Virus record (IMG/VR): IMGVR_UViG_3300020185_000033
Span: 11,830-75,829 of that record
DNA: 64,000 nucleotides
Reading direction: 5' to 3' (one strand)
DNA from: a virus
The position numbers were made by a program, and so were the translations under genes. Within the stretch, counting starts at the first letter, position 1; every line of letters begins with the position of its first letter. The notes under the pieces are model-generated. The model searched no databases. It was given only the letters and a program-made list of their open reading frames with translations, and had not been told where the DNA came from. Positions 58,048-63,647 of this stretch are shown here, piece after piece.

Positions 58048-58923
58048 ATGACTACGACAGGCAGAAAAGTAAATTATCTTAACAATAAAGATATTTTAAA
58101 AGAAATTCACAAAAGTAAACTTAGTTACTGTTATGTAACTGACGACAAATACATACAGCAAGACATTATCCTAGATGATGTTACACAAATTAACAAAACA
58201 ACAATCAAACAGGCTCAAATAAACAAAGCACATGGCATGTCTAGGGCGGCATACGAAAAAGCCGTTAAAGAAGGCGATTGGGTTAAGAAGCCTAAGCAAA
58301 AAGAATTTGCGGTTGATCCTGATAGTTTAGCAGTCGATGATTTAGTTTTTAGAGTTATGGGCTACGATCATATACCGCTAGAGCCAGGCAGGAAGAAAAC
58401 AACAAAGACAATTGCTGATACAAAGGCAAAAGTAAACTTCCCACCGTTTAAGCATTATATTTTAGATAGTGCTGGAGCAAATCCCAGGGAAGTCGTAAGA
58501 AGTCATTGGGTAGGTGGTCTACACAATGGACACTTCAGTTGTACACACGGTACAATTACAAACGAACTAGGCAAGATGTTTATGAAACTTGTTGAGCGTT
58601 ACAGTCAGAGAGGTAACTGGAGAGGTTACACTTATGTTGATGAGATGCGTGGACAAGCACTTGTGCAACTTGCACAAATTGGTTTGCAGTTTAACGAAGC
58701 AAAATCTGATAACCCGTTTGCATATTATACTGCTACGGTTAATAACAGTTTCACAAGAGTGTTAAACTTAGAAAAACGCAACCAGACAATCAGAGACGAC
58801 ATTTTAATTGAGCAAGGACATTTACCAAGTTACGGCAGACAGATTGCACACGAAAACTCTTTAAGAGAAATGAGAGAAAGTGCAGAAGCTGAATTGGAAA
58901 ATACCGGTAATACAACTAAGTAG
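58048..58923 (+). CDS. Late-transcription sigma factor (T4 gp55-like)
   Basis: NYLNNKDILKEI, NWRGYTYVDEMRGQA and FNEAKSDNPFAYYT. It sits directly before gp47/gp46, as in T4-like phages. GAGGAG RBS. Confidence 0.85.
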   Translation: MTTTGRKVNYLNNKDILKEIHKSKLSYCYVTDDKYIQQDIILDDVTQINKTTIKQAQINKAHGMSRAAYEKAVKEGDWVKKPKQKEFAVDPDSLAVDDLVFRVMGYDHIPLEPGRKKTTKTIADTKAKVNFPPFKHYILDSAGANPREVVRSHWVGGLHNGHFSCTHGTITNELGKMFMKLVERYSQRGNWRGYTYVDEMRGQALVQLAQIGLQFNEAKSDNPFAYYTATVNNSFTRVLNLEKRNQTIRDDILIEQGHLPSYGRQIAHENSLREMRESAEAELENTGNTTK

Positions 58924-58931
58924 GTAATCAT

Positions 58932-59951
58932 ATGGCAAACCTTTTTGAAAGGGCCGCATGTTTTACAGATATACATTACGGCTTAAAACAAAACAGTAGA
59001 CAGCATCTTAAAGACTGTCACAACTATGTAGATTGGTTTATAGAAGAAGCAAAAGCACGAGACTGTGAGACTTGTATCTTCTTAGGTGATTGGCATCATC
59101 ACAGAGCAAGTATTAATATTGCTACTATGAATGCTACAATTAAAGATCTTAAAAAGTTAAACGACAACTTTAGTAAAGTTTATTTTATTACTGGTAATCA
59201 CGATTTATACTACAGAGAAAAACGTGACCTTAACAGTGTAGAGTTTGCTAGAGACTTAGAAAACTTTGTAATGGTAGATGAACACTTCTGTGAAGACGGT
59301 GTTGCTATCATTCCATGGTTAGTTGGCGACGAGCACAAAACACTTAACAAGTTAGATTGTAAGTATATGTTTGGTCATTTTGAGTTACCGTACTTTAAAA
59401 TGAATGCAATGGTAGAAATGCCAGACCATGGCGGTGTAAAAGCATCTGACTTGTCTAATCCAGAATATGTGTTTAGTGGTCACTTCCATAAACGTCAATA
59501 CAAAGGTAACATACATTATATAGGTAATGCATTTCCACACAACTATGCTGATGCACAAGACAACGAGCGTGGTGCTATGTTCTTAGAATGGGACAAAGAA
59601 CCTGTGTATGTCAATTGGGATCAGTGTCCTAAGTATGTAACTATGGGACTTAGAGAACTACTCGAAGCACCAGATAAATTTTTAGATGATACAACACATG
59701 CTAGGATTAAACTAGATGTTGCTATCAGTTACGAAGAAGCAAACTTCTTAAGAGAAACATTTGCTGAAAAATATAATGTTAGAGAACTTCAACTTATTGT
59801 TGTAAAAGAAGAAGATGAGGTTTTTGACGGAGAAGAAATTAACTTTGAGAGTGTTGACCAAATTGTAATTAGTCAATTAGAAACAATTGAGAGTCAACTG
59901 GTAGACACGAATAGATTAATTGAGATTTACAGGGATATAGAAATTGCTTAA
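58932..59951 (+). CDS. Recombination endonuclease subunit (T4 gp47 / Mre11 / SbcD-like)
   Basis: Metallophosphoesterase motifs DIH, LGDWHH, GNHD, GHFE and SGHFH. Confidence 0.93.
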   Translation: MANLFERAACFTDIHYGLKQNSRQHLKDCHNYVDWFIEEAKARDCETCIFLGDWHHHRASINIATMNATIKDLKKLNDNFSKVYFITGNHDLYYREKRDLNSVEFARDLENFVMVDEHFCEDGVAIIPWLVGDEHKTLNKLDCKYMFGHFELPYFKMNAMVEMPDHGGVKASDLSNPEYVFSGHFHKRQYKGNIHYIGNAFPHNYADAQDNERGAMFLEWDKEPVYVNWDQCPKYVTMGLRELLEAPDKFLDDTTHARIKLDVAISYEEANFLRETFAEKYNVRELQLIVVKEEDEVFDGEEINFESVDQIVISQLETIESQLVDTNRLIEIYRDIEIA

Positions 59952-61716
59952 AATTAAAAATGTAACAGCAAAGAACTTTATGAGTGTAGGCAACAACTTA
60001 CAAGCAGTAACGTTTGACACCGATTCGTTAACATTGGTATTAGGTCATAACTTAGACCTCGGTGGCGATGGTAGTAGAAACGGTACAGGTAAGACTACAA
60101 TTATTAATGCACTCAGTTATGCACTTTATGGCGAAGCATTAACAAACATCAGAAAGGATAATCTTATTAACAAAACAAATGGTAAAGGAATGATTACCAC
60201 TGTTGATTTTGAGATTAAAGGAACAGAGTATCGCATTGAGCGTGGCAGGCGACCTAACGTACTAAAGTTTTATATCGACGGCAATGAATCAGCTGACAAT
60301 GAACAACAAGGTGACATGCGTGAGACACAAAAAGATATCGAACGTGTGATTGGATTCCCACATAATATGTTTAAGCATTTAATTGCATTAAACACTTACA
60401 CCGAACCGTTCCTCAGTATGAAAACAAATGACCAACGAGACATGATTGAGCAGTTGTTGGGTATTACTGAAATTAGTGCCAAGGCAGATGTGCTAAAAGA
60501 GTTGTTAAAACAAACCAAAGACAATATCAAAGAAGAAGAATTGCGTATACAAGCAGTTACCAATGCTAATAAACGTGTAGAGTCTAGCATTAAGGATATC
60601 GAAAGCCGGAGCAAAGCATGGGCTAGGAATAAAGGAGACAAAGTAAACGGACTGCAAACTAGTTTGGACACATTAGAGCATACTAATATTAAAGAAGAAC
60701 TGGACAGTCATAGAAAAATTATAGATATAAACGAAAAGCAAAATAAACTTACTGCACTTAAAACAGACTTGTCGACTCGAACAACGTCGATGAATCGTAG
60801 TGACAGTAAACTTGTTACGTTGGAGGCTAACTTAGAAAGTGCAAAGTCCGGTGTATGTCCTACATGCGAACAAGGTACGGCACATTTAGACACACATGAA
60901 AAATACACAGCGGACTTAGAAGAAGAAATTAAAGAAGAACAACGGTACAACGTTGAGTTAGTGGACAAGATTAGAGATATTACTAGCGGTATTAAACAGC
61001 TGGGCAATATTCCAGAAACACCAATTACTTTTTACAACAACATGGAAGATGCTTTACAGCATAAACATAATGTAGATACATTGCAAGAACAAATCGAAGA
61101 AAAGATTAAAGAAGAAAACCCGTATGTCGAACAAGTTGACCAACTACGCCAGACAGGCATCGAAGAGGTTAGTTACGAACTTATCAATGACTACACTAGC
61201 CTAAAAGAGCATCAAGAGTTTTTACACAAACTGTTAACAAGCAAAGACAGTTTTATTAGAAAGAAAATTATTGACCAAAACTTACAGTACTTGAATTACA
61301 GACTAGGGCATTACTTAGAAAAGTTAGGCTTACCACATGATGTTAAATTTAACAGTGATTTATCTGTTGACATCACGGAGTATGGCAGAGACTTGGATTT
61401 TGATAATTTAAGCCGAGGAGAGCGTAATAGACTTATACTTGGTATGAGTTGGGCATTTAGAGACATATATGAAAGTCTCAACCAACCAATGAATTTGATG
61501 TGCATAGACGAACTGGTAGACAGTGGCATGGATACCACTGGTGTTGAAAATGCATTGGCAGTTCTTAAGAAGATGGGAAGAGAATCAAATAAAAATGTGT
61601 TCTTAATTTCACACAAAGAGGAACTACAAGGGCGTGTTAATAACGTTCTTTATGTTGTTAAAGAAGGAGGATTCACTAGTTACAGTAATGACATAGAAAT
61701 CCTCGATGAGACTTAA
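59944..61716 (+). CDS. Recombination ATPase subunit (T4 gp46 / Rad50 / SbcC-like)
   Basis: Walker A NGTGKTT, coiled coils with a CPTC zinc hook, signature LSRGE, Walker B/D-loop CIDELVDSGMD and H-loop ISH. Confidence 0.95.
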   Translation: MLKIKNVTAKNFMSVGNNLQAVTFDTDSLTLVLGHNLDLGGDGSRNGTGKTTIINALSYALYGEALTNIRKDNLINKTNGKGMITTVDFEIKGTEYRIERGRRPNVLKFYIDGNESADNEQQGDMRETQKDIERVIGFPHNMFKHLIALNTYTEPFLSMKTNDQRDMIEQLLGITEISAKADVLKELLKQTKDNIKEEELRIQAVTNANKRVESSIKDIESRSKAWARNKGDKVNGLQTSLDTLEHTNIKEELDSHRKIIDINEKQNKLTALKTDLSTRTTSMNRSDSKLVTLEANLESAKSGVCPTCEQGTAHLDTHEKYTADLEEEIKEEQRYNVELVDKIRDITSGIKQLGNIPETPITFYNNMEDALQHKHNVDTLQEQIEEKIKEENPYVEQVDQLRQTGIEEVSYELINDYTSLKEHQEFLHKLLTSKDSFIRKKIIDQNLQYLNYRLGHYLEKLGLPHDVKFNSDLSVDITEYGRDLDFDNLSRGERNRLILGMSWAFRDIYESLNQPMNLMCIDELVDSGMDTTGVENALAVLKKMGRESNKNVFLISHKEELQGRVNNVLYVVKEGGFTSYSNDIEILDET

Positions 61717-62141
61717 TGAGTGCATGGACATATAAAGGTAAATTAGTAGACACACTTCCGGATGATTGTGAAGCATTTGTGTACTTGATTACAAACACAA
61801 CAAACGATAAGAAATACATTGGTAAAAAACTTGCAAAGTTTAAAACAACCAAGCCGCCCTTAAAGGGAAGAAAGAATAAACGCCGAGGATTTAAAGAAAG
61901 CGACTGGCGTACTTATTGGGGTAGCTCGGATCACTTAAACGAGGACGTAATTACTTTAGGCGAACACAAGTTTACTAGAGAAATACTACACTATTGCCCA
62001 ACTAGAGGTATTGCAAGTTACATTGAAGCACAAGAACAATTTGAACGAAATGTTCTCTTGACAGACGAATATTATAATGGTATAATAAACGTTAGAGTAG
62101 GCGGTTCACAAATCCTTAAGGAACATTTTAAAAAGATATAA
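61716..62141 (+). CDS. Small stand-alone GIY-YIG family endonuclease
   Basis: AFVYLITN...KKYIGKK, ESDWRTYWGSS, FTREIL, SYIEAQEQ (Glu) and YYN (Asn). There is no separate DNA-binding tail. It is coupled TAATG to gp46. Confidence 0.82.
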   Translation: MSAWTYKGKLVDTLPDDCEAFVYLITNTTNDKKYIGKKLAKFKTTKPPLKGRKNKRRGFKESDWRTYWGSSDHLNEDVITLGEHKFTREILHYCPTRGIASYIEAQEQFERNVLLTDEYYNGIINVRVGGSQILKEHFKKI

Positions 62142-62162
62142 CTATATATCGAACATGGCACA

Positions 62163-62209
62163 CATAGACACCCAGTCACGCTAATAAAAACATCACAGAC
62201 ACCAAGTCA
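62163..62209 (+). repeat. Two 16-nt direct repeats, 31-nt period
   Basis: catagacacccagtca (62163-62178) and cacagacaccaagtca (62194-62209) are 14/16 identical. Confidence 0.75.
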
Positions 62210-62222
62210 ACTACATAGGTTC

Positions 62223-62530
62223 TACACCACCCCGGCGAGGCTAAAATTCGCTGTCCTTGACAAACCGGTAATCCCGGTGCGAGATACTGGACTGTAGACG
62301 GCAAGATACAAACACGATACAGTATTAAAATGATTCAGGCAATGAGAAAAAGCAACCTGAAAGTTAATATAGTTGAACTCGACAAGACTATATTAATTTC
62401 CGTGAGGTCGAAAGACAGTGACGGTAGTGTATGGGGAGAAAAGGCTCACCGCTTCCTAGTAGCACCCGAGTTTGAGATGGCGATGCTCATCTTGATGACA
62501 TTTTTTTTATTCACCCGGAGACGGGTGAAT
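62223..62530 (+). ncRNA. Putative large structured non-coding RNA of unrecognised class
   Basis: About nine consecutive stems, many with plus-strand G-U pairs, GAAA and GAGA tetraloops, and a 7-bp loop-to-downstream pseudoknot (gaactcg 62375-62381 with cgagttt 62467-62473). The region is richer in G+C than other intergenic gaps. Confidence 0.65.
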
Positions 62531-62572
62531 TATGGCTTAACTTTCTTGATAACTTCTTAACTTACTAAAAAA

Positions 62573-62636
62573 TTACTACAAGAACTGATATGAATGAAAT
62601 GAATGAAGTTAGCAGTAGTAAAGATACGAAGTATCT
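62573..62636 (+). other. Twin hairpins with GAA triloops and tandem G-A pairs (ssDNA-type structure)
   Basis: ttactac...aact-GA-(t)at-GA-at-GAA-at-GA-at-GA-agtt...gtagtaa is followed immediately by agatac-GAA-gtatct. Confidence 0.6.
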
Positions 62637-63153
62637 ATAAAGTGTTTAAGAATGCAACAGTATCTGTGTAAGACAAACGTAAATTAACTGTGTAAAGATA
62701 AAAGTCTTTCTCCAAACTATGTTTGGATGCTCCATGGAACTTGGTAACGTCTAATATACACACCTCACCTGGATTTAACATTTTGTTGTGTTCGCTGTCT
62801 TTGTGGATTATTTCTAATGGAGAATCTTCTAGGTTAAACATAATATTGGTTTTTCTAGTTAACGGATTGTTCCATCCCATTAACCAGTCCTGATGCAACT
62901 TTACCATTGATCCTTGCTTTACTGTTTCTATTGCCACACTGTGTTCCGCGATGTCTAAAGGCAATGGTGTAGCATTTATAATTTGTTGTTGTAGGCTTTG
63001 GGGCATGTCGCGGAGTAAAAATATGTGTTGATCCATATCCACACGATCCTCGACCACGTTGTACGCACTTGCTTCTTTGAACTCTGTGATAGGTTTTACG
63101 AGCTGGCGCATTGCAACAACATCATAATCCCATTTTAAAACTGTGCTAAACAT
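62635..63153 (-). CDS. Cupin/2OG-Fe(II) oxygenase-like protein
   Basis: VKLHQD (HxD), TNIMFNL and PGEVCILDVTKFHGA (distal His). Confidence 0.65.
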   Translation of the reverse strand: MFSTVLKWDYDVVAMRQLVKPITEFKEASAYNVVEDRVDMDQHIFLLRDMPQSLQQQIINATPLPLDIAEHSVAIETVKQGSMVKLHQDWLMGWNNPLTRKTNIMFNLEDSPLEIIHKDSEHNKMLNPGEVCILDVTKFHGASKHSLEKDFYLYTVNLRLSYTDTVAFLNTL

Positions 63154-63575
63154 TCGCTATAGTGTTTCCTATTATTAATTGTTACAAACTCCGCAATAGT
63201 GCTACTTTGACGGTTGTCACAGCCATGTTCTTTAGTAGTATCAAGCACAAAGAAATCACCTGGCTGTATGGTATAGTCCTCTGTTACATCATTATTAGTG
63301 TGCTGTATAATAGCAGGATGGTCACCCACATTAACTAGTATGTTACTGCGTCTTCCGCCAATATCGGTGTGTAATGCTAGATAATCACCGGGTCTAACAA
63401 ACTCCAACCCTATGAAATGTTCGGGCTCTATATTGTATTTTTTAATGAAATCTGTGGGCATTCTGTCCCATAATTGGCTCGCAGAGTACAGTTTTTGGTG
63501 TATCTTCTTTAGTTGTACCACACTGCTTAACTGCTTATCTTGACGTAAAAACGCCACAAAATCATCTATATCCAT
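63135..63575 (-). CDS. Cupin/2OG-Fe(II) oxygenase-like protein
   Basis: LALHTD, SNILVNV and PGDFFVLDTTKEHGC. Paralog of the adjacent gene. The start at ATG 63575 lies 5 nt after GTTAAATA. Confidence 0.65.
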   Translation of the reverse strand: MDIDDFVAFLRQDKQLSSVVQLKKIHQKLYSASQLWDRMPTDFIKKYNIEPEHFIGLEFVRPGDYLALHTDIGGRRSNILVNVGDHPAIIQHTNNDVTEDYTIQPGDFFVLDTTKEHGCDNRQSSTIAEFVTINNRKHYSECLAQF

Positions 63576-63619
63576 ACTTGTATTTAACAAAAAAGATGCC
63601 AATATTTGTGGTAAAAAGG

Positions 63620-63647
63620 TTGACTTTGCCACAAAAACCAGTATAAT
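63620..63647 (+). promoter_or_regulatory. Sigma70-type (early) promoter inside an inverted repeat
   Basis: TTGACT-N16-TATAAT. Arms tttgtggtaaa (63605-63615) and tttgccacaaa (63625-63635) enclose the -35 box. Confidence 0.75.

Follow-up and report, generated by a model that had tools for sequence, protein, structure and literature searches.

Tandem sheared G·A pairs are a standard motif of RNA; in the (Py-G-A-Pu)2 context they have reportedly been characterized by Chou and Reid for DNA and by Turner and SantaLucia for RNA, and because the Py-GA-Pu context rule holds for both RNA and DNA it does not tell them apart. ColE1 RNA II is accompanied by primosome assembly sites downstream, and oriF and oriG of T4 are R-loop origins. 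DNA mini-hairpins of the type d(GCGAAGC) and d(GCGNNAGC) carry C-G-closed GNA or GNNA loops, with a G facing an A across the loop and any base at N, and fold on one strand only. The melting temperature of d(GCGAAGC) is 76.5 °C as compared with 39 °C for r(GCGAAAGC), a stability that standard energy models miss; such hairpins sit at the complementary-strand origin of phage G4, at ssiA of RSF1010 (CCGAAGG), and at the early promoters of N4 (PMC13037366). GAA triloops also act in RNA, in aptamers and riboswitches (PMC12550061).

The locus described here, from an uncultured marine T4-like phage, contains two abutting hairpins that share the loop rule and the one-strand folding of the DNA mini-hairpins. 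The G4, RSF1010, and N4 elements act in proven single-stranded DNA (ssDNA), that of ssDNA phages or plasmids, or in promoters extruded by supercoiling and used by a virion RNA polymerase, whereas the present element lies behind an RNA gene of a T4-like dsDNA phage and has mostly A-T stems. The tract TGAA TGAAA TGAA TGAA resembles the repeats of GGAAT/GAATG-type satellite fold-backs; unlike an expandable repeat, however, the element consists of one short hairpin whose fixed architecture is maintained by purifying selection. A comparison can also be made with the large orphan structured RNAs of phages and bacteria, GOLLD, ROOL, and OLE: the hairpins end a non-coding cassette of roughly 450-550 nt that matches no Rfam family, although those RNAs have not been described with an end composed of a GA zipper and a GNA mini-hairpin, or with a GIY-YIG partner. 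A further likeness, to ColE1 RNA II and T4 oriF/oriG, may be seen in the succession of a promoter, a folded RNA of ~500 nt, a repeated RNA-sense word, and non-template-strand hairpins; this likeness is purely architectural, and the spacer here is sometimes only 8 nt.

The window (the whole 64,000-nt stretch analyzed) takes up the final 64 kb of a viral contig of 75.8 kb from IMG/VR, with an estimated completeness of 21%. T4-type genes assigned with Pfam and PHROGs lie upstream of the hairpins on the plus strand: gp55, the late sigma factor (58048-58923); gp47 (SbcD-like); and gp46 (SbcC-like, 59944-61716). The head of the cassette is a plus-strand gene for a SegE-like GIY-YIG protein of 141 aa (61716-62141; Pfam PF19835, E 3e-34), which consists of the nuclease domain without a DNA-binding tail. 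A phmmer search with this protein against PDB sequences returned no match. Its closest cultured homologue, at 75% identity, is found in Methylophilales phage Melnitz, where it is placed behind ribonucleotide reductase genes and is followed by neither the RNA nor the hairpins. In nearly all loci of the family described below, the GIY-YIG gene lies directly 5' of the RNA, with 71-82% identity in most; such conservation and fixed placement are unlike those of a decaying selfish homing gene. Across loci with this level of GIY-YIG identity, gp46 is only 64-70% identical, and the GIY-YIG gene stays directly upstream of the RNA even where gp46 sits on the other side in reversed orientation.

A sigma-70 promoter of extended consensus lies on the plus strand inside the 3' end of the GIY-YIG gene (62058-62086). 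Its elements are perfect (TTGACA, 17 nt, TGgTATAAT); outside the window's group it is conserved in a single other lineage, and it is degenerate in the lineages of loci L121, L122, and L126. An RNA-run contig from a relative begins at 62090, near this promoter. Downstream of the GIY-YIG gene, positions 62142-62634 are non-coding; a 76-aa ORF at 62330-62560 was ruled out as coding since relatives carry 7- and 9-nt indels there. Two minus-strand ORFs converge on this stretch, of 172 aa (62635-63153), its TAG stop codon at 62635-62637 overlapping the second hairpin, and of 165 aa (63135-63632). Neither has an assigned function or a match in Pfam or PHROGs; the two are distant paralogues (27-32% identity by TBLASTN), and their family is found in marine contigs only. 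Among the neighboring genes, namely gp55, gp47, gp46, the GIY-YIG gene, and uncharacterized ORFs, no integrase or TnpA was identified with Pfam or PHROGs. A folded-ssDNA recombination site of the kind seen in integron attC or at IS200/IS605 ends was rejected, as these searches gave no tyrosine integrase or Y1 transposase gene nearby.

The non-coding stretch begins with a structured RNA core on the plus strand (62157-62497), recognized by RNAalifold and by metatranscriptome contigs. RNAalifold on 12 close sequences predicts 95 pairs, 23 of them with compensatory changes, and the same helices were recovered in 49 sequences. Rfam searches gave no match at gathering score in the window or in 10 diverse loci of the family; within 61900-62800 the only hit was a chance snoRNA match (E 8.6). 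Near-identical contigs from four genuine metatranscriptome runs, belonging to four studies, cover 62157-62497. These contigs begin at 62157-62194 and end at 62424-62497, and none lies over the neighboring minus-strand genes. The core is followed by a run of eight T (62501-62508) and a GC-rich hairpin, attcacccg-GAGA-cgggtgaat (62509-62530, plus strand), which is a possible end of the abundant RNA. In relatives its stem is replaced by a compensated one (TTCTCCT...AGGAGAA), and its loop is unconstrained (GCAA, GAGA, GTAT, GCAT, and others), so that there is no clean contrast in which the RNA part uses GNRA loops. The stop of the contigs would fit an RNA ending near the T-run and GC hairpin (62501-62530); no contig was found on 62512-63300, but the contigs are short and of low depth, which makes this a weak hint of an RNA ending upstream of the hairpins and not evidence of absence. 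The T-run and GC hairpin are flanked on the plus strand by twin boxes, TCTTGAT, at 62490-62496 and 62544-62550. Variants of the box in relatives (TCATGAT, ACATGAT, TCGTGAT, TCGAGAT, ATATGAT, ACTTGAT) are each present twice, both copies changing together. The second box lies only ~20 nt upstream of the hairpin domain.

The hairpin domain itself is preceded, directly 5' of the first hairpin, by a run of six A (62567-62572), which on the minus strand is a T-run after the hairpin. Five to eight A occupy this position in about three quarters of the family, including loci with a co-directional downstream gene. The long imperfect hairpin (62573-62621, plus strand) has an outer stem (ttactac, 62573-62579; gtagtaa, 62615-62621), an inner stem (aact, 62583-62586; agtt, 62607-62610), and a GA-zipper interior, GATATGAATGAAATGAATGA (62587-62606), capped by an apical GAA at 62596-62598. 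Within the interior, G62587·A62606 and A62588·G62605 are followed by A62590-T62604 and T62591-A62603, then by G62592·A62602 and A62593·G62601, and then by A62594-T62600 and T62595-A62599, an arrangement possible only with T62589 bulged, a detail absent from the sequence-only reading that preceded this analysis. Every G·A step has the form T-GA-A, C-GA-A, or T-GA-G, that is, Py-GA-Pu on both sides, and alternates with two Watson-Crick pairs. The mini hairpin, agatac-GAA-gtatct (62622-62636, plus strand; c-GAA-g at 62627-62631), abuts the long hairpin with 0 nt between them. Viewed as a single sequence, the hairpins are unremarkable and not above chance. Folded as DNA with ViennaRNA DNA parameters, the long hairpin scores -2.1 kcal/mol (z -0.7), and as RNA -6.6 kcal/mol (z -1.9), weak energies that both lie within the shuffled range. 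The 75.8-kb contig holds ~30 perfect hairpins with a 6-bp stem and a 3-nt loop, the chance rate, so that about one c-GNA-g hairpin is expected. Exact scans of IMG/VR with the 15-mer of the mini hairpin and a 20-mer of the interior returned mostly chance matches; the 15-mer has >108 occurrences, roughly the chance number.

Searches of the region (BLASTN, near and distant) and of the 172-aa ORF (TBLASTN) against 50,697 phage records gave no match. Searching with the same ORF recovered three, then 15 and nine, related loci on viral and marine metagenome contigs, at 63-99% protein identity, and both hairpins are kept in all of them. A 16-mer from the RNA core, TGAGAAAAAGCAACCT, matched at least 118 IMG/VR contigs, among which ~85 are distinct true relatives. 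The cassette is thus present in >80 marine viral contigs, comprising the SegE-like GIY-YIG gene, a structured RNA of ~400 nt, a linker, and the hairpins. The shared order is GIY-YIG gene, structured RNA, GC hairpin, TTATGRCTC...ATGATAAC, A-rich spacer, long hairpin, and mini hairpin. The window's locus has each trait of this twin-box family: the GIY-YIG gene directly upstream, the conserved core (TGAGAAAAAGCAACCT and others), and twin identical boxes. Wherever a locus extends far enough downstream, a single hairpin pair follows the core; it is the last conserved part of the cassette and marks its exact downstream edge. With a covariance model, the domain was likewise detected just once in each locus, in every case behind the RNA core, and nowhere else in ~1 Mb of related phage DNA. 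A scan of genome contigs with an RNA-core 15-mer, too short a word for that collection, gave 120 matches, all of them without the family signature, and is therefore uninformative on bacterial hosts.

Of 43 loci, 32 have a convergent gene downstream of the hairpins and 11 a co-directional one; the element is kept in both arrangements. At least three unrelated families of convergent downstream genes (~172-187, 273-283, and 115-118 aa) end in TAG at the mini hairpin. The A and G of these stop codons are the first bases of the minus-strand arm of the mini hairpin, and the edge of the cassette coincides with the stop codon to the exact base. In seven loci (L239, L268, L309, L313, L320, L321, and L329) there are 570-1500 extra bases between the GIY-YIG gene and the RNA core, where something is apparently inserted inside the cassette.

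Fifty distinct copies of the domain were aligned, and pairs were counted in the outer stem, the two apical pairs, and the mini hairpin. Standard pairs make up 96.5% of cells, as compared with 77.4% in shuffles, and the covariation score is 0.525 versus 0.175; none of 500 shuffles reached either observed value, though counts across relatives are not phylogenetically independent. With slid partners only 30-46% of cells pair. Compensatory changes on both sides occur in 13 of 16 tested pairs; the outer stem has them in seven of eight aligned pairs, and the mini hairpin, in which 100% of cells are Watson-Crick, in four of six. By the measure of this covariation, the hairpins are confirmed as real and selected as structure, and are kept in dozens of related phages. 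The fold drawn in the sequence-only reading (outer stem, 2-bp A-T steps with tandem G·A pairs, GAA cap, and abutting c-GAA-g hairpin) has accordingly been conserved by evolution in homologues. That reading had named the lack of the GA/GNA pattern in homologous loci as a reason to abandon it; the pattern is kept. Its placement of the hairpins directly downstream of a structured RNA is also borne out, on the plus strand and with an RNA supported by covariation.

The make-up of the loops and steps varies within narrow bounds. The closing C-G pair of the mini hairpin does not vary among the 50 aligned copies. In the 60 unique parses made automatically, which include some mis-parsed or non-family rows, it is C-G in 56, and the loop reads GAA in 47, GTA in five, GCA in one, and AAA in two. 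The stems of the mini hairpin differ widely (AGACAC, AGATAC, AGGTCC, AGACCC, TGATGTGC, AGATGTC, AGATGGTT), and the second closing pair is mostly A-T, not G-C. In the long hairpin, the pair closing the apical GAA is U-A (T-A) in 38 sequences versus C-G in nine, the next pair is A-U (A-T) in 24 versus G-C in 23, and the middle base of the loop may be A, C, T, or G. The 32 distinct apical modules comprise 17 GNA, eight GNYA, and seven GNRA loops. One subfamily has a 5-bp Watson-Crick stem (TATGT/ACATA) in place of the flanking A-T steps, and another has 7 bp instead (GTTTCAT-GAA-ATGAAAC); others, of the form GA|GT|GAA|GT|GAA|AC|GAA|AC|GA, still alternate 2-bp steps with purine-purine stacks. In some copies a GNRA tetraloop takes the place of a triloop (GTAA in L008 and L315; in distant subfamilies, GAAA or GTAA), and the words GCGAAGC, GCGATAGC, and GCGTTAGC themselves occur in distant subfamilies.

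The strand that folds can be read from the same alignment. Outer-stem wobbles occur in 10 of the 50 unique sequences, all of them T(5')·G(3') on the plus strand and none A·C; on the minus strand they would be C·A, and the opposite arrangement occurs in no sequence. The G·A stacks, too, exist on the plus strand only. Since both features are confined to the plus strand, the strand that folds has the sense of the upstream RNA, and the pattern of pairs indicates that the hairpins fold on this strand only. G·U pairs account for 1.4% of cells in the hairpin domain, with none in the mini hairpin, as compared with 12.5% in the RNA core, several of them invariant there, a ninefold difference. Sequence alone, however, cannot tell folding in RNA from folding in ssDNA.

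We tentatively propose that the hairpins act in the plus-strand transcript, as a 3'-terminal domain, an end structure, or a docking platform, and consider this quite possible, if somewhat short of probable. The long helix is irregular, its 2-bp Watson-Crick steps interspersed with tandem or triple G·A stacks beneath a GNA or GNNA cap, and the hairpin that abuts it coaxially, without a spacer, has 6-8 bp and a GNA triloop closed by C-G. Within the RNA, this pair could serve as a compact end structure that resists nucleases, as a platform on which a protein or an adenine of the same RNA docks, or as both; its role would be to stabilize or delimit the RNA in read-through or precursor transcripts, and not to encode information. 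The domain lies on the same strand as the covariation-supported RNA and in fixed order with it, in one copy per locus behind the core and nowhere else in the ~1 Mb searched, with as few as 8 nt of linker between it and the nearest conserved element upstream (L141 type) and no canonical terminator between the core and the hairpins. Strong covariation, wobbles that are G·U on the plus strand throughout, the exchange of triloops for GNRA tetraloops, and the known roles of GAA triloops in RNA (PMC12550061) all argue for an RNA domain. Against it stand the weak hint from the low-depth RNA-run contigs, which contribute nothing from 62512 on, and the scarcity of G·U, though short A/U-rich stems may avoid G·U for stability alone. 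Furthermore, half of the tetraloop caps are GNYA, unusual for RNA, the 2-bp A-U steps with a triloop cap are predicted by modeling to be unstable as RNA, and no U-tract follows the hairpins on the plus strand.

The same hairpins could instead form in plus-strand DNA displaced by an R-loop, as in ColE1 RNA II or T4 oriF/oriG, with the adjacent RNA kept on its template; the SSB-resistant mini hairpins would then recruit a helicase, a primase, or the structure-specific GIY-YIG nuclease of the cassette. We regard this as unlikely but as a live minority reading, on account of the loop rule, the few G·U pairs, and the RNA contigs that end upstream. The loops obey the rule of the DNA mini-hairpins GCGNAGC/GCGNNAGC, being G-N-A or G-N-N-A with any N and C-G-closed, to the point of the literal motifs in distant subfamilies; such hairpins are far more stable as DNA than as RNA and have precedents at G4, RSF1010, and N4 (PMC13037366). 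G·T pairs are strongly depleted relative to the RNA core, the contigs reach no further than 62497 and stop short of a GC hairpin at which the RNA could end, the hairpins come after an A/T-rich spacer, and through the twin boxes the RNA could pair with the template strand ~55 nt downstream. Nevertheless, there is no direct sign of single-stranded DNA, the 8-nt spacer of some subfamilies is too short for an unwinding element, no second signal appears on the other strand or elsewhere, and GC and AT skew profiles only follow gene direction; the A-T-rich stems are unlike the G-C-closed model hairpins, and every sequence feature fits RNA too. The inference of the sequence-only reading that this strand is exposed as ssDNA was neither supported nor contradicted; the covariation and the plus-strand G·T/G·U wobbles fit RNA equally well. 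The reading's account of the hairpin chemistry holds for the stability in DNA, but its description of these motifs as less characteristic of RNA was overstated. Taken further, the cassette might serve marine T4-like phages as a portable start site for replication or recombination, in which the GIY-YIG nuclease, a pre-primer-like RNA, an unwinding spacer, and the GNA mini-hairpins would work as one unit and the hairpins would be the initiation signal in R-loop-displaced ssDNA; we consider this extension doubtful. As an intrinsic terminator for the convergent minus-strand genes, possibly in addition to another role, the hairpins would be followed by six T on the minus strand; convergent genes flank the element, the stop codon of the 172-aa ORF overlaps the mini hairpin, the downstream gene is convergent in most loci, the minus-strand T-run follows in about three quarters of the family, and the mini hairpin, being pure Watson-Crick, folds on either strand. 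It also resembles 3'-terminal stem-loops and intrinsic terminators in its position at the end of a transcription unit and in the hairpin beside a minus-strand T-run. It differs from them in its long irregular helix with conserved purine mismatches, in its restriction to the cassette, and in having no U-tract on the folding strand (there is no T-run after 62636), and the minus-strand stem is A-T rich. The terminator scan makes no call at the element, and the minus-strand fold is weak (-4.9 kcal/mol, z -1.9), with a pyrimidine loop of 20-35 nt. Moreover, 10 sequences would have C·A mismatches in the 8-bp stem beside the T-run, the conserved G·A interior cannot pair on the minus strand, the element and its A-run are kept in the 11 loci with a co-directional next gene, and it occurs only behind the twin-box RNA and never at other gene ends. 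Termination of the convergent genes is thus an improbable function of the element; a plain minus-strand terminator is unlikely, and this would at most be a secondary role. A duplex-DNA site for a dimeric protein, in the form of a 15-bp palindrome (AGAYAC-N3-GTRTCT) whose half-sites co-evolve with the protein, would account for the perfect palindrome, the fixed 3-bp spacer, and the dominance of AGACAC GAA GTGTCT in the family, and symmetric change of half-sites would mimic covariation. We consider it very improbable, as stem length ranges from 5 to 8 bp with many unrelated sequences, the central GNA is conserved on one strand only, and duplex binding leaves unexplained the wobbles and non-palindromic G·A pairing of the adjoining long hairpin. 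Chance inverted repeats in A/T-rich low-complexity spacer DNA would agree with the single-sequence z-scores and the hairpin census, both at chance level, but are refuted by conservation and covariation across the 50 distinct copies, which no shuffle equaled in pairing or in score, and retain practically no probability.

Whether in RNA or in DNA, the element provides a defined downstream boundary and a third conserved component for a widespread, uncatalogued nuclease-plus-RNA cassette of ocean phages. Its make-up is odd, with G·A zippers, C-G-closed GNA loops that admit any N, and almost no G·U, unlike the adjacent RNA core. Should it act in the RNA, the known motifs of large phage RNAs would be extended by a compact end cap; should it act as DNA, an R-loop-type origin or a nuclease entry site would be indicated in phages not yet culturable, and the element would be a rare case of a large dsDNA virus making natural use of DNA mini-hairpins. 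In loci L100, L239, and L249 and their relatives, the long hairpin has an apex (A-C-GAA-G-T-G) identical in every letter to the mini hairpin's loop region, and in this subfamily one partner may read both loops.
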